Origin: a virus | Direction: 5' to 3' (one strand) | IMG/VR virus record: IMGVR_UViG_3300031841_003798 | Coordinates: 11,590 to 75,589 of that record | DNA length: 64,000 bases | In this document: one piece after another, positions 5,407 through 62,487 of the stretch | Layout of the letters: each line of letters opens with the position of its first letter | Position numbering within the stretch: the stretch's first letter is position 1 | Position numbers and translations under genes: made by a program | The notes under the pieces: generated by a model | The model's database searches: none | What the model saw: only the letters and a program-made list of their open reading frames with translations | Told to the model about the DNA's origin: nothing

Positions 5407-6185
5407 ACTATCGCCTTATCTCTACTAAGGAAGTTATTGCTAAAGTCTACCGGGATCTCAAGCCGGCTGATTCGTCATGGACTATGGACGCAGTCGAATG
5501 GATTGGAGAGGCTTTAGATTTCATTGGATATCATGGTATCTTCGATCACAGAAGTAAAGAATTAACCGTTGTCGATCACAAAGCCGAAATTCCTTGCGAC
5601 TTGTATCAGCTTATTCAAGTCGAATATGAAGGTACTGGTCTTGTGTATGGGACTGACACTACTGGGTATACTGCAGATACTCGCACTACAAGCGCTGAAC
5701 CTGCTAACTCTCAAGTCTATACTGTCGCTGTAGCAGAGTCCAATCCTACTGATGACCACAGTAGTCCTGCGTTTACATTAAAGTTTACAAAAGATCGTAG
5801 AGTCGCCAGTGAGTATTACCTTATCAATGCCGGCTACATTGTTACCAGCTTTGAAGAAGGCACTATTAAACTGCACTATACTGCATACCCTACCGATAAC
5901 GATGGGTTTCCGCAGGTGCCCGACAACATTTATGTAAAGCAAGCATTGGAATGGTACATCATTCGACAAATGATGATGGGCGGTTATGTCCATCCTGTCT
6001 TCAACTGGCAAGTAGCGGACGACAAGTGGGGGCACTACTGTGTAGCTGCACAGAACGACCTGAGCTTCCCGAGCATCGACAAGATGGAAACCATGAAGAA
6101 CATGTTCGTTCGCATGGTTCCAATGATCAATCGACACTCCGATTTCTTTATTGGGAATGAAACTCAAGAACGTCTTGATCGATGA
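5403..6185 (+). CDS. Tail tubular protein (crAss-like)
   Basis: EWIGEAL..IG, YIVTSFEEG.IKLHY.AYPTD.DGFP.VPDN...KQALEWYI; synteny. Confidence 0.7.
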   Translation: MNYRLISTKEVIAKVYRDLKPADSSWTMDAVEWIGEALDFIGYHGIFDHRSKELTVVDHKAEIPCDLYQLIQVEYEGTGLVYGTDTTGYTADTRTTSAEPANSQVYTVAVAESNPTDDHSSPAFTLKFTKDRRVASEYYLINAGYIVTSFEEGTIKLHYTAYPTDNDGFPQVPDNIYVKQALEWYIIRQMMMGGYVHPVFNWQVADDKWGHYCVAAQNDLSFPSIDKMETMKNMFVRMVPMINRHSDFFIGNETQERLDR

Positions 6186-42878: not shown

Positions 42879-45800
42879 TTAAGGTAGTCTAGCATCTACA
42901 TATCCAACACGGCGGTCCGTAATAATGATGAACAAATCATTGCTAGGTAGATCAATGCCTCCACCACTCGTACCAATCAAGTCAAACGTTAAGTCATACA
43001 ATTCCACACGCTCACCAGGTGCCATTGTCAATCGCAATCCGCTAAGCGATACGTCTGGCTCTGTCTCTAAATCAGTGTAGTTGCTGGTTACAATGTTAGG
43101 ATTGATAGGATCTTCGCCAAACTGAACTGGTTCAAACTGATCGTCGACATAAAGATGGTGTTGAAAGTTTTGGTGCAGCATAAGATAATCCATGACATCT
43201 ACACAGCCATTGCCATTAAAGTCATAGTCTTGAATATCATCAATTGCAGGTACATCTGTTTCGCACTCACCGTAATGAGCTAAAAAGTCAATGATATCAT
43301 CAGATTCTACAGACCCATCGCCTGTTACGTCACCAATCAAGTTGGTAAACAATACTTCAACACTGACGGGATACTCATAAGCATCTTGCCTAAACCACAG
43401 GGTATCATTCTCTTGTAAATATTTGATACCATAGTTACCGTTAGAGTCAGCAATACGAAAGCCTAATCGTTCGAATGGTGGATCAGGTAAAAGACTCTGA
43501 GTGTTTTCTTGGAATGTAACGGGAATTAATGCCCAGTCACCGTTTTGTGGCTCAGGAATGATACCAAGTAAAGGGTTGTCATTGTGCGGTAACTCTTCTC
43601 TTACGTACTGAGCAGCATAAAAGTTGCTGCTATCTCCGGCTAAAAATGGCCAATTAGTCGAAGAAGCAACAACATCTTCATTAGGTGTAGATGTACCGTT
43701 CTCTGCGTCAGCTTCAAAACCATGTTGGAAGAAAAGGTGAGGTAAGAAGGTAGTGTCATTTAAATAGTCTACACATAGAACAGTTGTAATGCTTGCGCTA
43801 TCTAATGCGGTGCGCCCATATAAATTAAAGTCTCCTGAAATAGTATAGGGTGCATTATTCTGAGGGAAGTCAAAATTGTACTCAGCCATGTCAGGGGTCA
43901 GTGCCATGTCTGTAGGTCCTAATGCACTGCTGCCCACATAGACCATTCCTCCAGGCATTAAATATTGGCCGAGCTCAATATAAGAGAAGGGCGTAACAAC
44001 TGAGTTTTGTAAGTAGTTCTGTACGATTGGGCTGTTGAACAATTGATCATCTTGCCAGTCAGCTACGAAAGCAGCGAGTAGATCATTTTGTAAGCCAGGG
44101 TTGTTTGTAGCATACTCTAGTAGCAAGTCGACCCAAAAATCATATTCACTGTTGTAAATCTGATCATTGTAACGATGATATTTTCTAAAAAACGCTTCGC
44201 GTACTCCTGTTACCTCTGCTGGATTATTTGCAATACTATACGCTCCTGGCTCAGAAGGAGAGTACCAAGCAAATGTTACGTTGTTTACCGAAGGATTGTC
44301 ATCAAAGTATTGTTGAACAACAGCATTTAAATTGAGATAGCCTCCAAAAGGATTGCTAATACTAGTATATCGATTTAAACCTGCACCCTCTCCTTCAATA
44401 ATAAGATCAACATCACCGTCGGGTTGTATTTCTAGTCCTCCAAACACAGACAGAGCATACATTTCTGTAGCATCAATAGTGTTATAGCAATACAATGTGT
44501 CATTGTTTTCAATACAAGTTTCAAATTCACTTAATGCAAACAAATCGCCTGCTGTATTGTAGTAATAGCCAGCACCACTAGAGTACGGTAGAGATGCAGA
44601 TACTTGACCGTCTCCGTTTACCCAAGGAGTTCCAGTATATTCCACAATATGAGGTGCTACTTGAGAGTAAGCAATAAGTTCCCACAAAGTGCTTTGAATA
44701 TTGTTAATCTCACTACTTCCATCCATGCGAAATACTTGTTTGTATTCAGCCTGAATGTTATAGGGATTAGTAGAAGGTTGATAGCTGCTGTGAAAATCAG
44801 CAGGAAAATCATATGCTAATTCTTCAGGTGGATCGTAAAAAGTTCCACCAGGTGTTAATCCAAAAGGATTAGGATTTGGCCGGTAAGCGCTTCCAAACTG
44901 TACAGTGTCGGCTAAAATGTTACGACCTTCTGGATTCTGGCTGTTGCCATATGTTCTCAAATCGCCAAAAATCGCGTGACTTGCGATATAATATGGATAT
45001 CCAACTGTGCCAAAACCGTTTAGCTCAGTATTATAAGGAATCCAAGATAGTGGGGCTGCAGCATCTACAAGCTCTAAATCTGACTGAGTTGCCTCAAGGT
45101 CATAATACACTGCAAAGTTGTAATAAGGTTGAAATGCTCCTGCACTAGGAGAAGTCAAGATTGTTAAATCATCTAAATCTATATCGATAAGCGGTAAAAC
45201 AACTGTATCAGCAATAATTACATCAGGATCTTCTGCGACCAACTGATTAACAACATTACCATTCTCTGTAACAAAATATGCTGCAAAAATTCCGCCATTA
45301 TTAGGCATATCTTTCAATAAATTTTCAATACTTCCTTGGTATGCTACTCTGCCTGCGTTGTTGTTAAAACCTTTAAAACGATCTTTAAACTTTACATCTC
45401 CACTCCATGGAGAGTAAACTACTCCTTTTAAGGGAAGACCCTTTAAATAGTATCCCGTCAAACTAATTGGAGCATATTGCTCTACGTTAGTCAGATAGCC
45501 GTCGACATAGATATCTTGTAATAACTGAGGATCATAAGATGCCGTGTATGGATCTAAAGTGTCTTGAAGAGATTGCGGCAGAGATCCAATGATAGAGGAA
45601 AATACAGCCGACGATACAACGGGGCGACTTAAGTATAGCGTTTCATAATGTATGTCGCCATTTACTGTGCCTAAATTTTCAAAGGTAGCGCACTGATGTA
45701 ATGCTTTGTCTACAAGGAAAGTTAGACTGCCTCCTTCTTCAATATTGATTGTACCTGCATTGTGACATTCTTTAGTAATAAATACAGGTCCTTGAATATT

Positions 45801-46271
45801 CACTGTAGCACCTTCTACTACCCACAGCTCTTTAAGCAAGAGGGAGTCAATGCAGGAAATATTTAAGTCACTACCAAAACTACCTGCTGGGGTAGTCCAT
45901 CCAACGTGTAAGCCTCCAAACTCTGTTGCACCTACGTTGCCAATGCTGAAATCAGCAATAGACTCATTAAATAAGTCTTTACCGCATACAACATATACGT
46001 CAGGCTGATCACCTAAAGGTGCAATGTCGCCGGGGTATCCATCACCTAGAGGTGTTTGCACATTAGTATAACCTACAAGAGGACCTGCTGTACCTGTAGG
46101 AAAAGGGATTGCTTGATCAGCTACAGGCGGGCATCCAGTTCCGGTGTTGGTCCATGTGAAAACACCACTAAGATTCTGCATAGTGTAGGTCCAGTCGAGC
46201 TCACAATATGAAAGCTGTGCGTTGGCCACTAAGCCAGCGAAGATAAACGTTGTCGCAAGTAAGTTTTTCAT
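42879..46271 (-). CDS. Large secreted protein with dockerin/EF-hand-like repeat (paralog 3)
   Basis: Signal peptide MKNLLATTFIFAGLVANA|Q; GDVTGDGSVESDDIIDFLAHYG and YDFNGNGCVDVMDYL near the C-terminus; extensive similarity to 46268..49762. Confidence 0.8.
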   Translation of the reverse strand: MKNLLATTFIFAGLVANAQLSYCELDWTYTMQNLSGVFTWTNTGTGCPPVADQAIPFPTGTAGPLVGYTNVQTPLGDGYPGDIAPLGDQPDVYVVCGKDLFNESIADFSIGNVGATEFGGLHVGWTTPAGSFGSDLNISCIDSLLLKELWVVEGATVNIQGPVFITKECHNAGTINIEEGGSLTFLVDKALHQCATFENLGTVNGDIHYETLYLSRPVVSSAVFSSIIGSLPQSLQDTLDPYTASYDPQLLQDIYVDGYLTNVEQYAPISLTGYYLKGLPLKGVVYSPWSGDVKFKDRFKGFNNNAGRVAYQGSIENLLKDMPNNGGIFAAYFVTENGNVVNQLVAEDPDVIIADTVVLPLIDIDLDDLTILTSPSAGAFQPYYNFAVYYDLEATQSDLELVDAAAPLSWIPYNTELNGFGTVGYPYYIASHAIFGDLRTYGNSQNPEGRNILADTVQFGSAYRPNPNPFGLTPGGTFYDPPEELAYDFPADFHSSYQPSTNPYNIQAEYKQVFRMDGSSEINNIQSTLWELIAYSQVAPHIVEYTGTPWVNGDGQVSASLPYSSGAGYYYNTAGDLFALSEFETCIENNDTLYCYNTIDATEMYALSVFGGLEIQPDGDVDLIIEGEGAGLNRYTSISNPFGGYLNLNAVVQQYFDDNPSVNNVTFAWYSPSEPGAYSIANNPAEVTGVREAFFRKYHRYNDQIYNSEYDFWVDLLLEYATNNPGLQNDLLAAFVADWQDDQLFNSPIVQNYLQNSVVTPFSYIELGQYLMPGGMVYVGSSALGPTDMALTPDMAEYNFDFPQNNAPYTISGDFNLYGRTALDSASITTVLCVDYLNDTTFLPHLFFQHGFEADAENGTSTPNEDVVASSTNWPFLAGDSSNFYAAQYVREELPHNDNPLLGIIPEPQNGDWALIPVTFQENTQSLLPDPPFERLGFRIADSNGNYGIKYLQENDTLWFRQDAYEYPVSVEVLFTNLIGDVTGDGSVESDDIIDFLAHYGECETDVPAIDDIQDYDFNGNGCVDVMDYLMLHQNFQHHLYVDDQFEPVQFGEDPINPNIVTSNYTDLETEPDVSLSGLRLTMAPGERVELYDLTFDLIGTSGGGIDLPSNDLFIIITDRRVGYVDARLP

Positions 46272-49200
46272 GGTATTCGAAAATCAATATGTCCTGCAAA
46301 TCGCGATGTAGCAATGATATACAGCTGTTGTAAAGGAGCTGTTACTTCATTTCGCTCTTGAGCAATTAAATCTAAGTTGGTGTCGTACAGAAAAATTTCT
46401 TCTCCGGGAATACGAATCAATTGATTTGCCCCAATAGTTACACCAGGCTCGTTACGTGCATCTGTTGGATAGATCTGCAGCACCTCGGCATCAGATAGCT
46501 GTGCCTCAGCAATTGATTGAGGTGAAAAGTTTCCATTAAAATGCAATGAAGTTTGAAAGTAAACGATAACCCATAGGTGATCCATAGCATTTACACATCC
46601 GTCTCCATTGATATCGTAGTCTTGCAGATTAGGTACAACTGGTACATCTGTATCGCAAGCACCATAGTAATTAAGAAAGGCTGTTAGGTCGTTGACATTT
46701 ACAATACCATCACCGGTAACATCACCTCGCAAGGATGTAAAGAACAACTCTACAGTTACAGGATAAGCATAGTCACGATGCCTAAACCACATTGTATCTC
46801 CTTCAAAAACGTATTTAATAGGCATAATTGTATCGTTAAATACAATTGTATCGCCATTTAAATAGATGACTGTATCAGCAGATTGGTGTACACGAATACC
46901 AAGTCGATCAAAAGGTGCTTGCTGGTTCATCGCCGAAGCTGGGCTTTCTTGGAACTGCAAGGGCGTAATACAAATAGCGCTATCTGGTTTAGGAATAATA
47001 CCTAATAATGGATCAGCATTGTGAGGAGTAGCTTCATATACATAGCTAGCAGGATAAAAACTACTTGAATCACTGCATAAAAATGGATACCCCGTAGTAG
47101 TAGCCATATCATCCTCTAATGGCTGAATACCGTTTTCGGCCTCTAGATCCCATACATGATGGAACCAAGGACGTGGCCAGTATGAGCTATCGTTTTTAAA
47201 ATCAATAGCTGCTACAACTGTAATGTTTGCACTGTCTCCTGCTAGTCGTAAACCATCTAACCATTCATCGCCCGCAACATCATATCCAGGCACATTTTCT
47301 GGAAAGTGAAAATCATAGACAGCTTCATTTGTGCTCATGTTTAGCTGTGCTTCTTGACCTTGGCTGTTTTTAACCCAAATAGATCCACTTGGAGTTAAAT
47401 AGCGACCAAGAGGATAGTAGCTAAAAGGATTAAGTGTATCCTGTGCTAAATAGTTAAGAGCTACCTCGCTATTAATTACGCCATCATCATTGTAATCAGT
47501 AATGAATGTGGTAATTAAATCATTTTGCAATCCTGGATTAGCAACAGCATAGTCTACGACTAATTGAATCCAAAAGTCCAATTCGCTAGCGTATACTTCG
47601 TTACCGTACTTATGATACTTGCGCCTAAAGTACCGACGCTGGTATGGTCCTACTTGAGTAGCGGTGTACACCTCTTGCTGTGGATGTTCGGCATAATAAA
47701 AATCTTGGTTTCCTCCAAGATTGTACCATGCAAACTCTAAATGGATAGCTTCTGAATTTTCATCAAAGTACCGTTCAGCTACTAAATCCAAATCCAAATA
47801 ACCATTCGAAGGGTTTGAAAAGGAAGTCCACATGTTGGCTTGCTCTGCACCTGTAATTGTTTGGACTTCAGAACCAAAGCCGCTACCTTGAATAACAGTA
47901 GGCGTAAAGCTTCCCAGTTGAGTCATGTCATATGACTCTGTATTAGCAAAACAGTACAAGGTATCATTGTTAATTAAACAATCAGTAAAAGCACTGTATT
48001 CAAATAAATCACCCTCAGTGTTGTAGAAATATGTAATACCAGGTGATGTTGGCATATATAGCTGTACTCCATTATCAATACCATTATCGTAAACTGGTAT
48101 AACTTGATTTTCATAAGGAATGCTAGGATAATACTGTCCGTCATTACCAGCTGAACTGTTGAACCACGGATAACCTTCGTATTCCCAAATGACCGGCGTA
48201 TATCGATGGCCTGACCGCCCTCTCCATAATCCTATTGGCTGATGTATAGGTGTATTAGCATCTATAGGCATGAATCTAGCGTACTTATTACGTGCCAGTT
48301 CAGTGGTCCAGGAATCCATACGAAATCCAGGCGGGTATAACTCTGCAAAGTTGTAACCGTTCACCGAGTCATTGTATGCTACGGTTGGCAAGGGATCACC
48401 CCAAGAAATATTCCAAGGGTGTGTACCAATAGTATCTGCGATAATAGAATGGTTAGGATTATTCCAAATTGGGTTGCCCTCGCTACTACCCGTGCGTAAA
48501 TCAAACCAAGTTATAGTGGAAGCAGCGCCATTAGGAGAAGTGTAAAATCCATACAGAGGCGTGTTTCCAAACGGAACCCAGGTTAAAGAATCGGCATTAG
48601 TCATTAAGGCCTCATCTTCCTCCCAAACATCTACATCAAAAACAGTTTCGATATTCATGAAAAACCCGTCATTCACTAGAGCTGTATCCGCTAACCAGTT
48701 ATATGAATCGGGATCATTGGAATCAAAAAAAGTTGTATCGCCATTTGCGATACCGATCAAAGTAAAGAGTCCAGGAAAACTTGCAGGAGCACTGACCCCT
48801 AAATCTTCTTGGGGTCCTGCGTTGGTAATAAATAACCCTGAGTTGTTACCCCAACCTTTAAACCGTTCTTTTTGAATCATGTCACCATCGTAAGCGTTTA
48901 ATCGCACGCCTTGCAATGGAATACCCTCCATGTAATAACCTCCAACACCAATAATAGGTTCATTAGCATTAGATCCTGACGCTTCAAAAATTGCGTAGTT
49001 GTCTACATAATACTCTAACCACTCGCTGTATTCAAGGTCCGCAAGAAACGGATCTACAGTATCTAAGAAACTAGATGGAAGATCATCTACAAATACACCA
49101 AATGGAGCAATAATAGGGCCGTCCATATATAATGATTCGTAAGAAATACGACCATTTACAGTGCCCCTGTTTTCGAATAAAGAGTGCTGGTGCTTTTCTC

Positions 49201-49762
49201 TATCAACTAAAAAGGTCAAGCTGCCACCCTCCATAATGTTGATGGTCCCTGCGTTGTGTGCGTCTTCCGTAATAAATACAGGCCCATAGATATTTACTGT
49301 TGCGCCCTCTACAACCCAAAGTTCTTTGAGCATAAGAGAGTCGGTACAATAAATATCTAGGTCTTTACCGAACGAACCTGCCGGAGTAATCCAGCCTACG
49401 TGCAAACCACCAAAGGTCTGTGCTCCAATGTTTGTGATATTAAAGTCAGCTACATGTTCGTTGAATTGATCCTTGCCGCAAACAACATACAAGTCTGGTT
49501 GATCTCCTAATGGACCAATGGTTCCATAACTAGCTTCAATATTCATCCAACCGTATTGAGTAGTTGGACTACCCGTAGGGAATGGAATTACTTGAAATGC
49601 ATCAGGTTGCGTTGCTGTACAAGTCGCTGTAGAAAAGGTGTAAACTCCAGACAATATCTGTATTGTAGGCCCATAATCTAGATTACATGCAGGAAACGTA
49701 GGTTGCCCATAGACTGTAGTAGTAACTACCAGCAGTAAAACGCTAAAAAATGTACGAAGCAT
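46268..49762 (-). CDS. Large secreted protein with dockerin/EF-hand-like repeat (paralog 2)
   Basis: Signal peptide MLRTFFSVLLLVVTTTVYG|Q; GDVTGDGIVNVNDLTAFLNYYG and YDINGDGCVNAMDHL. Confidence 0.8.
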   Translation of the reverse strand: MLRTFFSVLLLVVTTTVYGQPTFPACNLDYGPTIQILSGVYTFSTATCTATQPDAFQVIPFPTGSPTTQYGWMNIEASYGTIGPLGDQPDLYVVCGKDQFNEHVADFNITNIGAQTFGGLHVGWITPAGSFGKDLDIYCTDSLMLKELWVVEGATVNIYGPVFITEDAHNAGTINIMEGGSLTFLVDREKHQHSLFENRGTVNGRISYESLYMDGPIIAPFGVFVDDLPSSFLDTVDPFLADLEYSEWLEYYVDNYAIFEASGSNANEPIIGVGGYYMEGIPLQGVRLNAYDGDMIQKERFKGWGNNSGLFITNAGPQEDLGVSAPASFPGLFTLIGIANGDTTFFDSNDPDSYNWLADTALVNDGFFMNIETVFDVDVWEEDEALMTNADSLTWVPFGNTPLYGFYTSPNGAASTITWFDLRTGSSEGNPIWNNPNHSIIADTIGTHPWNISWGDPLPTVAYNDSVNGYNFAELYPPGFRMDSWTTELARNKYARFMPIDANTPIHQPIGLWRGRSGHRYTPVIWEYEGYPWFNSSAGNDGQYYPSIPYENQVIPVYDNGIDNGVQLYMPTSPGITYFYNTEGDLFEYSAFTDCLINNDTLYCFANTESYDMTQLGSFTPTVIQGSGFGSEVQTITGAEQANMWTSFSNPSNGYLDLDLVAERYFDENSEAIHLEFAWYNLGGNQDFYYAEHPQQEVYTATQVGPYQRRYFRRKYHKYGNEVYASELDFWIQLVVDYAVANPGLQNDLITTFITDYNDDGVINSEVALNYLAQDTLNPFSYYPLGRYLTPSGSIWVKNSQGQEAQLNMSTNEAVYDFHFPENVPGYDVAGDEWLDGLRLAGDSANITVVAAIDFKNDSSYWPRPWFHHVWDLEAENGIQPLEDDMATTTGYPFLCSDSSSFYPASYVYEATPHNADPLLGIIPKPDSAICITPLQFQESPASAMNQQAPFDRLGIRVHQSADTVIYLNGDTIVFNDTIMPIKYVFEGDTMWFRHRDYAYPVTVELFFTSLRGDVTGDGIVNVNDLTAFLNYYGACDTDVPVVPNLQDYDINGDGCVNAMDHLWVIVYFQTSLHFNGNFSPQSIAEAQLSDAEVLQIYPTDARNEPGVTIGANQLIRIPGEEIFLYDTNLDLIAQERNEVTAPLQQLYIIATSRFAGHIDFRIP

Positions 49763-52700
49763 TAGTATCCAGTGAAGAGAGGAACAGTAGTAAATGGATC
49801 GTTAGGTTTATTAGAACCTAAACACAAGTAGTTAACTGGTGTAGATAATCCAGGCAGATCTAGATAGTAGTCTAAAAACAAGTGGATTTGATATCCTACT
49901 GGACTAGCTAAAGTGTTACCAGTGCCCGATGCTTCAAGCTGTGCGCTTGTTGGAAGGACTGAGGGTAGACGGATGTTATTGTCTGCACTGCTTTGAATCG
50001 ATCCTCCATGAACGATAGTACCATACTCGTCAGTAATAACGTAGTTGCCTCGAATAACACACGTACTGATATATGCTTGTTGCTGAACGCTGAACCCTGG
50101 GTAGTCGCGCCAGTCGTATGCGTTGTGTGTGTTGTCCTTCTTAGTAGCGAAGTATGCGATACGCTCTTGCTCTGGACTCATGTAATCATCGGATCCATAC
50201 ACATCGTCCGGATACGATAGTCCAAAGTTGGATAAGAATCCTAGCAGATCTGCTTGACCAATAACTCCATCGTTATTGTAGTCCAAGTACATGTTATTGT
50301 CATTGACAGTTGTACCAAAGAACGACAGTAAGACGAGCATGTCGCTGGTCGTAATGTTACCATCCGTATTGAAATCACCGTAAGTGGGACGGATGTGTAG
50401 CTCAATTAAGTCACCATTAAAATCTTCTGTGCCTCCAACGTTTAATGGTGCAGGGTATGTGTTTGCCGTGTTTGTAACAGGCATTTTAAAATTAGGAGGA
50501 TCAATACGTTGTGTATTTTGGCCAGGATTAAAGGCTTTAATGTGCCACCATGCAGGCCAGGACAGTTGTGGATGTTGTCCAATAGGACTGTCGATATAGT
50601 ATTCTAACACACTAGTGCCGTCTAAGTCGAAGTTGAATGCGTCAAAGTCTACAACTAAGTAAAGAGTGTCGCTAGGGTCAGTAACGTTTCGACTATAGGA
50701 GCCAAACATCAGCTCACCAACCTGCCCATCTTCTTGTCGAAGCAGGTACATGGCCGGGTCAGGTGCAATGCTGTATTCAAATGCATCAAGATATCCGAGT
50801 GCACCGCCTGAATACTCAGGACCAAATGCTAGTGGAAGGTAAGCAAGGGTGATGGTGTCAGTTGCTGTACGTGCATTAAGGCGTAACAGCGTGAACTCAT
50901 CCATGGCATCCAATGCAGCCATATCAAACTCGCAGTTGTCTGATCCGTTGCAAGGATAGTTGTTTACTCCTTTGCCTGCTGCGTAATCTAAAATGCTGCG
51001 CCTGTTTAAATCATATACGTCACTCTTGATGTCGTAAGAGCGAACGATAGGATCATTAGCATAAACTGTGGTATCTGCTGTAACAATGCTTGCCAATCCA
51101 CCCATATTGGTGTAACTGTGATCGACTTTGATAGAATTGCTAAACAAGTTTAATGTGCCACCATCGTAGTCACCGATGTTGTAGTGATTGACGTGGTTGA
51201 AACCAACTACATCCCAAGGTTCAAGAGTATCTCCAATAGCTTCAGAATGAGTCATACCATCGATATTGTACAAGTCGATAGTACGCCACACTTCATTTTC
51301 ATGATCGTAAAAATCTAAGTAGTCTGCTACTTTACGAGGGTAAGACAGGCCGGAAAGGGCGTTATAGCTATATCCCGTAACAGGATCCGCTACATACAAT
51401 CGTTCAGGCATAAAAGACACAAGAGGTTTGATGTCGTAGAATGTACGTGCCGAACGTGGACTAAAGTTTTTTACGAGAGTAACAACCTTAGACATGTCTA
51501 CTTGCGATCCATCAAACTGATGAATCATTCCCAATCCAGTAAAATCGATGTTACGGTATGAATCTGTTGTCGTACCTCCTTGCTGGCTGTAAATATCAGA
51601 TGCGTAGGAAATGGTAGTCGGTGTGTTTAGAATAGTTGCAGCGTTTTCAAAGTAAACACTGAGTTCAGCAGGATATTCTGGAGCATTGTTGGTATCAAAT
51701 GCCTCATCGGTAATTCCGACTACAGCCTGACTTTTCCATGTACCGGTAACCTCGATTACCATTGAGGCCACAGCATTGTTTGCTCCTTGCACATTGACAA
51801 TCAACGGATCAAACATATCGTCAGGTGTAGTAGCTAGAGCATCTTGCTCTGCCTCTGTTGCAGTGGTTACACCTCCTGTTAAAGCTGCAACTTGCGCATT
51901 GCCTACAAGATCAGATACCGTGTTGTTACCTGAGTCATATACTGGAATGATCCGTACACCGTAGCTCGGATCATATTGATTGTAGAAGATTGCAGGGTTG
52001 TAGAAGTCAGCAGCTGGATTCGCAACAAAGTTGTTGTAGTCACGTACTACCTCACCGCTGTGCAAATTGGTATTTAATGCTGCACTACTACTTAAAGAGT
52101 TGTGATAGGAGTGATCAGCGATATACCCATAACCATCTGTTTCATCAATCTCGCTCCACCATCCAACTTGTACGGTTGGCTTTACCCCTAATACAGCTAA
52201 GCTGTCTTGAATCTGGCGCACCATATCGTCAAGGTTGATAGATGCTAAACTGGAGTTGACTAAAAATTTAAGTACGTCTCCATCCGCTTCATCAATAGCG
52301 GTGTAGTTGTCAAATGAGACTAGTACCTGTCTGGTAATCTTACCATCAATCTCACCAAAATCATTGTCGATAATTGCTTGACCGGCTGCAGTGTGTTTTA
52401 ATACAACTTCACCACCCGGTTCAATAAGGAGTTTGCCATTGTTCGCTAGGTGTAGAGCATTTTTAATCTCGACACGAGCCCCGGCTTTAACTCGCAAAGT
52501 AGTACCACCATCAATGTAGACACGATCGAACAACCAGTTGCCTGAGTTCAATGTCATTACAGGGTTTTCGTAGTACTGAAAAACGTCTTCGATTACACTA
52601 ATTCTTGTTTCTAAAACACTGGCTGTAAGGTATGTACCTCCTGGAATGCCGTTAATAGCACCGGTACCAAGCAATCCATAAATCTGATCGTCTGACCAAC

Positions 52701-52935
52701 TTTGTGGAATGGTATTGTTGTAGTTGCCAATGATGTACTTGTACATCCCCGTAGGGGCGTAAATGGAGTCACAAAACTCGCCGGGACCATCACCTGTTTC
52801 CGCTTGAACTGGGTAGGTGTCTCCTACTCCATCCCAGAAACTATTAATATTTAATGCGCAAAGATCAGGAAGAGGTTGTGCCGTTGCGCCGAAAGTCAAG
52901 AATAGCGCAATGCACCCCAAGAATAAATTCTTCAT
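49762..52935 (-). CDS. Large secreted protein with dockerin/EF-hand-like repeat (paralog 1, most divergent)
   Basis: Signal peptide MKNLFLGCIALFLTFGATA|Q; GDFNTDGNITTSDMLVLLSFFG and LDYNNDGVIGQADLLGFLSNFG; NNGKLLIEPGGEVVL matches NAGTINIEEGGSLTF of the paralogs. Confidence 0.8.
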   Translation of the reverse strand: MKNLFLGCIALFLTFGATAQPLPDLCALNINSFWDGVGDTYPVQAETGDGPGEFCDSIYAPTGMYKYIIGNYNNTIPQSWSDDQIYGLLGTGAINGIPGGTYLTASVLETRISVIEDVFQYYENPVMTLNSGNWLFDRVYIDGGTTLRVKAGARVEIKNALHLANNGKLLIEPGGEVVLKHTAAGQAIIDNDFGEIDGKITRQVLVSFDNYTAIDEADGDVLKFLVNSSLASINLDDMVRQIQDSLAVLGVKPTVQVGWWSEIDETDGYGYIADHSYHNSLSSSAALNTNLHSGEVVRDYNNFVANPAADFYNPAIFYNQYDPSYGVRIIPVYDSGNNTVSDLVGNAQVAALTGGVTTATEAEQDALATTPDDMFDPLIVNVQGANNAVASMVIEVTGTWKSQAVVGITDEAFDTNNAPEYPAELSVYFENAATILNTPTTISYASDIYSQQGGTTTDSYRNIDFTGLGMIHQFDGSQVDMSKVVTLVKNFSPRSARTFYDIKPLVSFMPERLYVADPVTGYSYNALSGLSYPRKVADYLDFYDHENEVWRTIDLYNIDGMTHSEAIGDTLEPWDVVGFNHVNHYNIGDYDGGTLNLFSNSIKVDHSYTNMGGLASIVTADTTVYANDPIVRSYDIKSDVYDLNRRSILDYAAGKGVNNYPCNGSDNCEFDMAALDAMDEFTLLRLNARTATDTITLAYLPLAFGPEYSGGALGYLDAFEYSIAPDPAMYLLRQEDGQVGELMFGSYSRNVTDPSDTLYLVVDFDAFNFDLDGTSVLEYYIDSPIGQHPQLSWPAWWHIKAFNPGQNTQRIDPPNFKMPVTNTANTYPAPLNVGGTEDFNGDLIELHIRPTYGDFNTDGNITTSDMLVLLSFFGTTVNDNNMYLDYNNDGVIGQADLLGFLSNFGLSYPDDVYGSDDYMSPEQERIAYFATKKDNTHNAYDWRDYPGFSVQQQAYISTCVIRGNYVITDEYGTIVHGGSIQSSADNNIRLPSVLPTSAQLEASGTGNTLASPVGYQIHLFLDYYLDLPGLSTPVNYLCLGSNKPNDPFTTVPLFTGY

Positions 52936-57722: not shown

Positions 57723-57818
57723 CTATTAGTAATTATCTGTAATGAAATGATAGATGGCAGAACCCGTGGAAACTGCCAGCAAAAGGGAAGAGGGTTTTTG
57801 TTTTTCTATCAGTTAAGC

Positions 57819-58295
57819 TCAGACGTCGAGCTTAGCCTTCTTGGTCTCAGTGACCTTCTCGCCGGTAGCCTCGACAACGTCGATAGGCAGGGCGAACTCG
57901 CCAGCGAGAGTGAAGTTGTCCCAACGGAGCATGGTGTCCATGGACTTAGCCCACGTGGGGCTATCGATCGTGTCGGGCACGAAGATAGTGGCACGATTGT
58001 AATCGTTGCCATCAATCTCGTACGGCTCAACGTCAACAGTCATCGGCGTGCCAATGACAGGCTGTCCAACCTTGTGGCTGAAGATGTGATTCCAGGGAGA
58101 GTCTACACCGTCCTGCCAGGAATTGACAGTAAAGGTGCGGCCTGCGCCTGCACACACTTCAGTCTCACCACTGAGGGGATTCTGTCGGGACACAGCAGCA
58201 ACTGCTTGGATTCGGAACGTTGCGTACGTGTTGCCGCTGCGGTCTTCTTTGTTTTCACTGCGGTCGGTAATCTTACAAAAGTATTCGGTAGCCAT
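57819..58295 (-). CDS. Hypothetical protein (possible OB-fold)
   Basis: 158 aa, biased codon use, long A/C-rich leader; beta-rich pattern. Confidence 0.65.
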   Translation of the reverse strand: MATEYFCKITDRSENKEDRSGNTYATFRIQAVAAVSRQNPLSGETEVCAGAGRTFTVNSWQDGVDSPWNHIFSHKVGQPVIGTPMTVDVEPYEIDGNDYNRATIFVPDTIDSPTWAKSMDTMLRWDNFTLAGEFALPIDVVEATGEKVTETKKAKLDV

Positions 58296-59204: not shown

Positions 59205-59228
59205 TATTTCTCGTTATTGTTTTCACTT
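59205..59228 (-). promoter_or_regulatory. 24-nt repeated upstream motif
   Basis: AAGTGAAAACAATAACGAGAAATA, 22 nt before ATG 59182. Confidence 0.65.
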
Positions 59229-59339
59229 TAAGTCGTTGGACAGATTAGCACGGGCAGAACTACATAACTGCCGGAACCAAATTGTGCTTAACCTAAGTCA
59301 CGATGCTGTAGTTTTTGTTTTGTGCTGAAGGCTAACGTT

Positions 59340-59609
59340 TTAGCCTGAAATGTTGTGGTAAATAGCTTCTTTGTTAATCTCTTCACGCAGATCGATGTAA
59401 CGACGACGCACCTTGCGGAATGCTGCTCTGAAGACTTTGTCGTTCTTGTGCTTGTGCACCTGATCGCGCATAGCAACATAGCGTGATGCGATTGCAAGAA
59501 ACTGACCGTACTTGTCAGTAAAAGACGTGCCCTTCTTACGGCAGTAAGAAATGCATCGCTTGAGAGCGTCGATTCCGACGTTCTCGATAGGTTCTAGTTG
59601 GTTTCTCAT
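59340..59609 (-). CDS. Basic hypothetical protein
   Basis: 89-aa ORF, Arg/Lys-rich helical. Confidence 0.6.
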   Translation of the reverse strand: MRNQLEPIENVGIDALKRCISYCRKKGTSFTDKYGQFLAIASRYVAMRDQVHKHKNDKVFRAAFRKVRRRYIDLREEINKEAIYHNISG

Positions 59610-59628
59610 AGTTTCTGATTATTTAGTA

Positions 59629-60430
59629 AATAAAGATGACATGGGTGCCGGGGTACTAAACCCGAAAGTGCGTCGGTATTAACTCGCGTGAGAACAATTG
59701 TAGATGGCATGAGGTCGTTACTCTCACATGCCGCTAAGCATGCTCGCGCCCTTCTACTTTGTAAAGTTCTGCATCACAGGAACCGCAAACCCGATTGATG
59801 CTCACACGTAATCCCTAAGTTTAATTTAGAGAGTCACACTACTGCAGTTGCATACAGCCCACCGTAGTTCCATACGCTTGTATAGAACGCAGCTACTGTA
59901 TACAGTGCATACCTTATGGCCAGGATAAAGCCATTATTCAGTCACACCCCTCACCGTTGGTTAATTACTCCGGTGGTGAGTGTCATCTTATTCGCCCTGC
60001 TGGTTAGCAGTCAGGACTTGTGAGAATCAATCTCACAGATACATTCTGTAGGACACTAATACTTCTTGCCTAGTTCCCTTGGACAGGTATAGACAAGTGA
60101 GATATAAGCCACGGCATGTATCAAGCGTTAGAAGGATTCTCACCTTCTTCCGGGCGCCTACAAAGTAGACGACTTCCTGTTAGACGCGTTCAGGCGGCAC
60201 CCACCCGAGTTAACTTGGCGTGATAATATCGGGTGTCTTATCACGTTGCAGGGATTGTTATAGAGACCCTACCCCTTGCTGATTCCACAGCAATATCGAC
60301 GCAGCAAAGAGTCGTCACTCAATGCCACTACCCCTGGTCGCGGGGCCCGGAACTGTGTCGAATCTCGATGCTCTTTGCCACTCTTGGGCAGAGCACGACC
60401 TATTCGTCAATAGGTAGCCGACAATACGTT
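59629..60430 (-). ncRNA. Candidate large structured non-coding RNA(s), family unassigned
   Basis: About 800 nt without a convincing ORF in a densely coding genome; more than 10 local hairpins and several 7-11-nt long-range complementarities. Strand inferred from the flanking genes. Confidence 0.55.
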
Positions 60431-60432
60431 TA

Positions 60433-60657
60433 TCACCAATTGCAAGGACAGTACTCATCATACCGTTGAGTCATCTGACACGTTTCGCAATGGTACATGT
60501 CACCATCAGAGGTAACATCGCTTTGCTCAGCCATATGTTCAGCAAGCATGTCGTCATACTCGTTACCGTAGAGCTCAGCATTGAGACGAGCTACGTCTTG
60601 ACGCAGCTTAGCATTTTCTTGACGGAGTTTAGCTACAAGTTTTACAAGTGATCGCAT
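60433..60657 (-). CDS. Small coiled-coil protein with C-terminal Cys cluster
   Basis: Leucine-zipper-like N-terminus; CETC...YCPC. Confidence 0.6.
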   Translation of the reverse strand: MRSLVKLVAKLRQENAKLRQDVARLNAELYGNEYDDMLAEHMAEQSDVTSDGDMYHCETCQMTQRYDEYCPCNW

Positions 60658-60676
60658 AGTAAATAGTTCTTGGTTC

Positions 60677-60700
60677 TATTTCTCGTCATTGTTTTCACTT
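60677..60700 (-). promoter_or_regulatory. 24-nt repeated upstream motif
   Basis: AAGTGAAAACAATGACGAGAAATA, 19 nt before ATG 60657. Confidence 0.65.
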
Positions 60701-60795
60701 GGAGCTAAAGGACAGACAAGTACCGCGCCCCCGCCCGCGTGCTGTATTGGGCGAGGGCACTTGATAGACAGTGCAGCAAGTACTTCTATCCATTT

Positions 60796-60884
60796 TGGTA
60801 CCACCGACGGGAGTCGAACCCGTACGGACCGTTCGGTCCAACAGAGTTTAAGTCTGTCATGTCTACCAATTCCATCACGGTGGC
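60796..60884 (-). tRNA. trnL: tRNA-Leu(UAA) with encoded CCA
   Basis: Acceptor GCCACCG/CGGTGGT, anticodon arm ACAGA-CTTAAAC-TCTGT, long variable arm GGACC-GAAC-GGTCC, T-arm ACGGG-TTCGACT-CCCGT, discriminator A plus CCA. Confidence 0.95.
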
Positions 60885-61802: not shown

Positions 61803-61826
61803 TACTTCTCGTCATTGTTTTTACTT
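61803..61826 (-). promoter_or_regulatory. 24-nt repeated upstream motif
   Basis: AAGTAAAAACAATGACGAGAAGTA, 22 nt before ATG 61780. Confidence 0.65.
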
Positions 61827-62044
61827 AGCGTTTTGTACCGTCCTTGCAAAGCCGGGCTTGGCTATGTAAGGCTAGCAAACGTACCGTGCTTGCAGTGATA
61901 GTGTTAATACGGCACCGCACAGTAACGCATATGTACTGTGCAGTGCCGTTCAGTAAGGCCGAGCGTATGTAAAGCCCTGCTCGGCAAGGGTTCGGGGAAG
62001 CACTGACGGGGCCGAAGCCCCGCCAGTACTGTGCAGCCTACGCT

Positions 62045-62290: not shown

Positions 62291-62314
62291 TATTTCCCGT
62301 CATCGTGTTCACTT
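62291..62314 (-). promoter_or_regulatory. 24-nt repeated upstream motif (variant)
   Basis: AAGTGAACACGATGACGGGAAATA, 3 nt before ATG 62287. Confidence 0.55.
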
Positions 62315-62487
62315 AATGTCGTTGTTGGAGTTGGTCAGCTCGTCTTTGCACCGCCGTTGCACTGTCTTTGCTGGCGTTGGCGTTGGCGTGGCTTACACTA
62401 TCATCACCCCACAGTACTTGCCGTACTCATGCTTAAGCATAACCCCAGCTCTGCGCGGAAGAGCCAGGGTTACACATATCAGACTAT

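Follow-up and report, generated by a model that had tools for sequence, protein, structure and literature searches.

A conserved minus-strand island of structured RNA modules, one of them manA-like, in a distantly crAss-like marine phage

GOLLD and ROOL are phage- and prophage-associated RNAs that often lie beside tRNA genes and form multimers made of RNA only, while in phage T4 the species 1 and 2 RNAs are small stable RNAs embedded in the tRNA cluster. The manA RNA (RF01745) was proposed as a riboswitch candidate located in 5′ UTRs (Weinberg et al., 2010; PMC2864571) and has been an orphan candidate since 2010. A 2026 preprint has reported that manA RNAs assemble via kissing loops into pentamers, pentamer-based decamers and a cage of 60 subunits, and presents these cages without a biology (10.64898/2026.07.01.735769).

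Here we describe an island of structured RNA in a 64-kb stretch of viral DNA (hereafter the window), the right-hand part of an IMG/VR virus record (75.6 kb, 94% complete). Like GOLLD and ROOL, with which an earlier note on this DNA had compared it, the island is phage-borne and near tRNA genes, is rich in helices and pseudoknots, has no known protein partner and may include a self-assembling RNA. The comparison holds in part. Neither GOLLD nor ROOL matched the island at the gathering threshold or at E ≤ 10 with permissive filters, and unlike them the island falls into separable modules of about 130-360 nt; one of these, module M, does resemble manA, a reported cage former found beside phage tRNAs. 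With the T4 species 1 and 2 RNAs and the small RNAs in the tRNA array of cyanophage S-CREM1 it shares the general arrangement of non-tRNA structured RNAs among tRNA genes, where processing is presumably shared, and in relatives of this phage modules A and B abut tRNA-Met and tRNA-Arg as phage tRNA-cluster RNAs do. Unlike those RNAs, the array in the window is set off from its tRNA-Leu gene, and no family has been described for its modules A, U and X. We consider it probable that positions 59633-60432 of the minus strand hold an array of four or more independent RNA modules in tandem, of which M is a long-form relative of manA, and that the modules would act as stand-alone RNAs in trans.

The RNA island and its strand

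The ORFs of the window include one of 4642 amino acids, a family-A DNA polymerase, a DnaB-like helicase and many without a family. By polymerase, the closest cultured phages of this marine, distantly crAss-like phage are crAss-like (approximately 25% identity), and the stretch is present in public seawater, marine, sediment and wetland metagenome runs. A BLAST search of the window against cultured phages returned the tRNA as its only match. The gene-free gap (59610-60432, 823 nt, minus-strand sense) lies between two small minus-strand ORFs, a 5′ neighbor of 74 aa (60657-60433) and a 3′ neighbor of 89 aa (59609-59340); PHROGs and Pfam gave no function for these neighbors, and searching IMG/VR for relatives via the two ORFs found none. 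Upstream of the unit, ARAGORN and Rfam both call a minus-strand tRNA-Leu(UAA) gene (60796-60884), which is kept in the related contigs L002, L003 and L087 and is separated from the array in the window by the 74-aa ORF. Related contigs were obtained by polymerase-anchored and pattern-anchored searches, and modules were delimited by BLAST and nhmmer.

Within the gap there is no ORF longer than 78 aa in the standard code, and coding under TAG read as Gln or TGA read as Trp was rejected, since no convincing ORF emerged. ARAGORN and Rfam detected no tRNA or tmRNA inside 59610-60432, the tRNA-Leu being the sole tRNA, and an Rfam scan left most of the island without a family. The whole gap folds better than shuffled sequence, more so on the minus strand (z = -4.10) than on the plus strand (z = -3.06; 20 shuffles). 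Module by module, minus-strand z-scores (100 shuffles) are -4.0 for X, -3.0 for M, -2.1 for A and -1.8 for U, with the flanking ORFs at -1.3 to -2.2 for comparison.

The complementary motifs from which the earlier note had deduced a structured RNA (five long-range or pseudoknot pairs and all of the local hairpin arms) were all located on the plus strand where it had placed them, and all are exact reverse complements. That the gap is a conserved, structured non-coding RNA is borne out by its relatives and by the compensatory changes described below. Those pairings had been written on the plus strand; our results give the minus strand, on which the flanking genes also lie, as the RNA sense. Two observations indicate this strand: invariant U-G and G-U pairs occur in module M, and strain variants at paired positions, seen in contigs from RNA libraries, pair on the minus strand only, where four out of four turn G-C or A-U into G-U. 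Read on the plus strand, these four variants are mismatches. The island is a real, partly new and conserved island of minus-strand structured RNA, in which the modules are ordered U-A-X-M. All island features given below are on the minus strand.

Module M and the manA RNAs

Module M (59633-59989, 357 nt) is a long manA-like domain with homologs in three other phage contigs besides the window (L101/L089, L187 = L200, and L186). The closed domain of approximately 360 nt that had been proposed here is real, its 9-bp closing helix (59989-59981/59641-59633) covarying across three lineages: the strands change yet pair, as AAGAUGACA/UGUCAUCUU in the window, AAAAGAACA/UGUUCUUUU in L101 and GAAGGAG/CUUCUUC in L187. 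Inside this helix lies an extended P1 (59980-59950), in which CUCACC/GGUGAG of the window is CAGAC/GUCUG in L187. It is followed by an enclosing helix (GGGUG 59949-59945 / CACCC 59647-59643), for which a relative has GGAGUG/CACUC by compensatory change, and by the core GUGUGACUGAAUAAU-hairpin-AUAAGG (59947-59911). A terminal hairpin (59664-59649; helix 16 of the fold) has CACCC directly after it and shows compensatory change in 3 pairs; L101 has GAAGG...CCUUC at this place and then CACUC. The apical loop of P1 is palindromic, UAAUUA in the window (59967-59962) and UGAUCA in L101, L187 and L186; two loop positions have changed together, and the 6-nt loop stays self-complementary. This palindromic loop is a candidate RNA-RNA contact.

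In an RNAalifold consensus of four sequences, 16 helices comprise 106 pairs, and 95% of the cells are paired. Compensatory change is seen at 31 of the 106 pairs, against 11.0 ± 2.6 in column shuffles (0/500 reach 31) and 2-6 compensatory pairs in a control with the partners slid, in a small alignment of four sequences and about 2.5 lineages from which the structure itself was derived. The first search pattern for M had no match in IMG/VR.

The only meaningful Rfam match of M is manA, with 21.1 bits in the window, 17.5 bits in L101 and 18.8 bits in L187. All three lineages fall well short of the gathering threshold of 55.2 bits, and because the Rfam cut-off is not reached M is not counted as a member; we would file it as a long manA-like variant. 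Positive controls score above the cut-off, at 96.6 bits for S-CREM1 and 58.8-69.5 bits for six IMG/VR loci. M is like manA in that a P1 hairpin is followed by a helix enclosing the remainder of the RNA, in the near-identical core GUG(A/G)CUGAAUAA-hairpin-UAAGG, in the terminal hairpin that, as in the manA consensus, directly precedes the enclosing helix's 3′ strand, and in its occurrence in marine phages with tRNA genes and other small RNAs nearby. The internal-loop core of manA (GUGaCUGAAUAA ... hairpin ... UAAgGu) has its counterpart in the window at 59947-59911, and the exact core string of M is shared with the six loci above the manA cut-off. A scan of IMG/VR with this string found 21 loci, compared with about one expected by chance, and six of 12 scanned loci (eleven core-string loci and the MAG locus L207) pass the manA cut-off. 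Scanning genome contigs gave three loci, two in coding sequence and the third, L207, a weak manA-like candidate.

M is unlike manA in its length (357 nt versus about 170-215 nt, the manA consensus being about 190 nt long, with about 170 nt more of helices in M) and in its larger central region, where the multi-stem junction and long hairpin of the consensus are not matched and cmscan aligns poorly, with local gaps and mismatched pairs. It also differs in having an extra outer closing helix and an extended P1 with a palindromic loop, canonical manA P1 loops being GACG tetraloops, and its host is a distantly crAss-like phage while that of manA is a T4-like cyanophage. A model of the 5′ half of M matched manA loci that had been picked via a motif inside the model and missed the independent manA of S-CREM1, and for these reasons it was given no weight. 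Three cyanophages picked via the tRNA match yielded no hit to the manA model, and the S-CREM1 manA had no match when BLASTed against cultured phages.

Threshold-passing manA RNAs are mostly located inside phage tRNA arrays, 0-14 nt from tRNAs (S-CREM1, L194, L198, L190, and L202). In S-CREM1 (L184; OP535465, 9745-10567), manA follows tRNA-Leu at a distance of 1 nt and adjoins tRNA-Asn, in an array that also holds wcaG and abiF RNAs. In L194 (5075-5414) and L198 (4166-4504), 5 nt separate it from the preceding tRNA-Met and 9-10 nt from the tRNA-Ala that comes next, and in L190 and L202 the distance between manA and tRNA is 9-14 nt. In the viral contig L193 (14233-14403 and 14620-14823), manA (58.8 bits) is approximately 220 nt from a permuted (alpha-type) tmRNA gene. 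The wedging of manA among tRNA genes, with gaps of 0-10 nt in S-CREM1, L194 and L198, is at odds with its annotation as a 5′-UTR cis-regulator. A position between tRNAs argues against a leader and for a stand-alone RNA, which would be freed by tRNA processing.

If M is such a stand-alone RNA, it would most likely act as a self-associating RNA particle, as reported for manA, and its palindromic loop would be one of the contacts. A further-reaching proposal, which we put forward tentatively and regard as rather unlikely in its entirety, is that the island encodes a kit of RNA-only particles. M would be a new long manA-type cage subunit assembling via its P1 loop, A, U and X would be undescribed classes, the modules would be traded like tRNA genes, some of them (A with M) would dock by base pairing, and manA-type RNAs in general would be stand-alone products of tRNA arrays, not riboswitches.

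A cis-regulatory role for M, as a manA-type riboswitch or attenuator leader controlling the 89-aa ORF (59609-59340), seems improbable to us. It would agree with the proposal of manA as a 5′-UTR riboswitch candidate (PMC2864571), with the spacing between the 3′ end of M and the next ORF, which is 24 nt to the ATG in the window and about 33 nt in L187, and with a U-rich run behind the 3′ strand of the closing helix. Against it, what follows M differs between phages, being the 89-aa ORF in the window, an unrelated lipoprotein-like ORF in L187 and another RNA module, leading into an array, in L101. The consistent class of downstream gene expected of a riboswitch is thus lacking for M, and the neighbors of A vary likewise. 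Moreover, manA is flanked on both sides by tRNAs in S-CREM1, L194 and L198, with no ORF to regulate, and a simple scan found no terminator-like site. The differing downstream ORF and the presence of manA RNAs beside tRNAs favor action in trans over action in cis. A long manA-like RNA in a crAss-like phage, modules that are reshuffled, and manA between tRNAs together point to stand-alone processed RNAs, not leaders. Constructs of M and A and the palindromic-loop contact offer concrete objects for testing this.

Other modules and their arrangement across phages

Module A (60153-60297) consists of three hairpins and a pseudoknot and has eight homologs, among them L097 (93%), L092, L003, L087, L101, L093, and L077. 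Its 5′ border is sharp, AUUGCUG being the start in every case. P1 (60293-60288/60281-60276) carries the invariant loop UGGAAU and is followed by P2 (60271-60267/60253-60249) and P3 (60245-60238/60226-60219), whose loop (60235-60229) forms the pseudoknot with 60208-60202. A conserved single strand, AAGUUAA (60216-60210), comes before the pseudoknot partner segment; further on are GCCG with a hairpin (60194-60176), then AAGUCGUC (AAGUCGU), and at the 3′ end a small hairpin (60168-60158) and GCGCC (60157-60153). The pseudoknot CACCCGA:UCGGGUG, which had been predicted from the window, stays paired in relatives and covaries. It is CAUCCGA:UCGGGUG in L097, UCCGA:UCGGA in L092 and GGUCGU:ACGACU in the L003 type, the last wholly different in sequence yet complementary, and one of its positions is C-G in the window, U-G in L097 and U-A in L092. 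P2 shows a G-C to C-G exchange, and in P3 an A-U pair is replaced by G-C among sequences of the window type; the covariation of A as a whole is that of essentially two sequence types.

No Rfam family matched A at E ≤ 10, also when it was scanned alone, and a known ribozyme or riboswitch was rejected on this ground. Searching 1.25 Mb of related loci with a covariance model of A added no copies. In L092, a strong hairpin with a U-run, terminator-like in appearance, stands immediately upstream of A (approximately 5700-5763), which suggests that A can form its own unit there.

Module U (60298-60432) is homologous to positions 2853-2985 of L101 (75% over 131 nt; nhmmer E = 6e-13). It is conserved on the 5′ side as a hairpin, ACCUAUU-GACG-AAUAGGU (60410-60393 region), and on the 3′ side as a block that ends in ...GCUGCGUCGAU; the part between the two varies and contains two hairpins. 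U is located 5′ of A in the window and 3′ of A in L101. Module X (59990-60152) has the best folding z-score of the modules (-4.0) and comprises a hairpin AGAAGG/CCUUCU (60148-60130), a domain of approximately 85 nt closed by GAUACAU/AUGUAUC (60122-60038), a hairpin UGUGAGA/UCUCACA (60037-60019) and a further hairpin around 60005-59992; no homolog was found in any fetched locus. Three more conserved non-coding modules are present in the related contigs: B (L101 2557-2633), which directly abuts tRNA-Met in L003, Z (L101 2786-2861), and W (L087 459-580 / L187 2803-2923), which follows A in L087. None of the three had an Rfam match in the stretches scanned.

In addition, a tRNA-like module, absent from the window, occurs in L101 (2985-3076), L093 (4499-4582) and L077 (2458-2544). 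It has a 6-bp acceptor-like stem, GCACAG/CUGUGC, and a T-arm, UGUGG-UUCGAUU-CCACA, while a long stem replaces the D and anticodon arms, and it goes uncalled by ARAGORN. Several of these motifs are not in Rfam 15. Among them, A and U have homologs, and A shows covariation as well; for B, Z, W and the tRNA-like module there is sequence conservation only, and X is seen in this phage lineage alone.

The order and content of the modules differ between phages. L101 carries M-B-A-Z-U-tRNA-like in a gene-free stretch of 900 nt, L003 has A-B-tRNA-Met-tRNA-Arg, L077 has B-A-...-tRNA-like, L093 has Z...B-A...tRNA-like, and in L187 M stands alone between two ORFs. A occurs without M in L003, L087, L093, L077, L097, and L092, and M without A in L187 and L186. 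Module borders are sharp, and the modules shared between L101 and the window are 75-95% identical, the DNA polymerases of the two being 44% identical. These differences of order and content mark the modules as separate units and not as parts of a single fixed RNA, and the units evidently move between phages. In 79 further polymerase-anchored IMG/VR loci none of A, U, X and M was present, nor did the L101 island have a match when BLASTed against cultured phages. A search with the pattern GCCGCCTGA..CAGGAAGTC gave 73 loci, all rejected as chance hits apart from the known L003 contig.

The earlier note had favored one large multi-pseudoknot RNA, or two interacting RNAs. We find little to recommend either a single ornate GOLLD/ROOL-like RNA of approximately 800 nt with cross-domain helices or a pair of RNAs, A and M, that bind each other. 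Module order and content that vary from phage to phage are incompatible with a fixed tertiary architecture, A and M each occur without the other, and matches to GOLLD and ROOL are lacking, as stated above. The cross-domain complements on which this proposal was built are present in the window and marginally unusual. Between A and M there are complementary stretches of 11, 9 and 8 nt; of 300 shuffles, 2-4 contain one as long as the 11-nt stretch, and 2 attain the summed length. In L101 too, A and M are complementary over three 8-nt segments (8/300 shuffles do as well), one of which uses the same terminal hairpin of A, and in both phages the complementary 8-mers that A and M have in common outnumber those of shuffles. 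At the homologous positions of L101, however, none of the three stretches of the window is found again, and one of them uses the CACCC strand that is paired already inside M. A further helix, TTCCGGGC/GCCCGGAA, is found in the window and has no counterpart in L097 or L101. An A-M contact is unlikely to be general. In favor of a longer RNA are also the absence of the promoter-like repeat (see below) from the interior of the island and the contiguity of X and M in RNA-library contigs.

RNA libraries and the putative transcription unit

Logan contigs from the RNA libraries of four studies cover 59641-60138 (495 nt), 59628-60138, 59672-59997, and 60206-60435. The contig over 59672-59997 continues into a different upstream sequence, and that over 60206-60435 (X19) is 100% identical to the window and spans U. 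Two contigs of approximately 97% identity, from two studies, both stop at 60138 and show X to be contiguous with M in close strains, so X and M may be one RNA. These shared ends are at most a weak hint of a bounded stable RNA and were not counted as evidence. In the four RNA runs, the flanking ORFs (59300-59623, 60436-60800) were not covered. Island sequences occur in RNA libraries, which is no proof of transcription, strand or ends; DNA can be present in such libraries.

A promoter-like repeat of 47 nt (minus sense, ...AAGUGAAAACAAUNACGAGAAAUA) has four copies in the window, at 59205-59251, 60677-60723, 61803-61849, and 62291-62337 (also 58243-58259). Each of the four lies 4-25 nt upstream of a minus-strand ORF start. 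Similar copies were seen in L003. The repeat is probably a phage early promoter or 5′ leader motif, and the copy at 60677-60723, upstream of the 74-aa ORF, would be the start of the island's transcription unit. On the other side, a minus-strand hairpin, AGGCUAAAACGUUAGCCU, with a AAAACAAAAAC tail (59305-59346) lies across the stop of the 89-aa ORF. The AAAACAAAAAC tail is found once more, letter for letter, behind another minus-strand ORF (57794-57804), and the combination of a hairpin GGCUNAAACGUNAGCC with AAAACAAAAAC recurs at the ends of minus-strand units, in L097 on both sides of A (approximately 1470-1495 and 1645-1690). Such a hairpin and tail may serve the phage polymerase as a terminator or as a processing signal, in which case 59305-59346 would be the end of the transcription unit. 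A scan for sigma-70 promoters and intrinsic terminators found none and is uninformative, as the phage has its own polymerase.

From these signals we infer one transcription unit, made up of the repeat, the 74-aa ORF, the RNA island, the 89-aa ORF and the hairpin. Under the tandem-array reading, the modules are part of a pool of RNA units shared by related and unrelated marine phages, in which they occur in varied orders and are often fused to tRNA genes. The array would be transcribed from the repeat at 60723-60677 and cut into stable stand-alone RNAs, as for the RNAs of tRNA arrays, and these would act in trans, not on the next ORF.

It is very improbable that the island is instead a DNA-level element (an origin, a packaging site or single-stranded DNA hairpin promoters for a virion RNA polymerase) or a functionless remnant of genes or tRNAs: its place in a presumed early region near the genome end, the promoter-like repeats around it and a plus strand that also folds better than shuffles would suit such an element, but compensatory changes preserve long irregular helices and strand-specific G-U pairs, neither of which double-stranded DNA sites need, no direct repeats or iterons were found inside the island, ARAGORN finds no tRNA or tmRNA there, and the identity of 75-95% between modules of phages with polymerases only 44% identical argues against decay.

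The tandem array of RNA modules sits in that presumed early region, with repeated promoter-like motifs around it. Elsewhere in the window, three consecutive ORFs of approximately 1100 aa (42879-52935) all have a dockerin-type Ca-binding repeat at the C-terminus (Pfam PF00404), which is unusual within a phage replication block.
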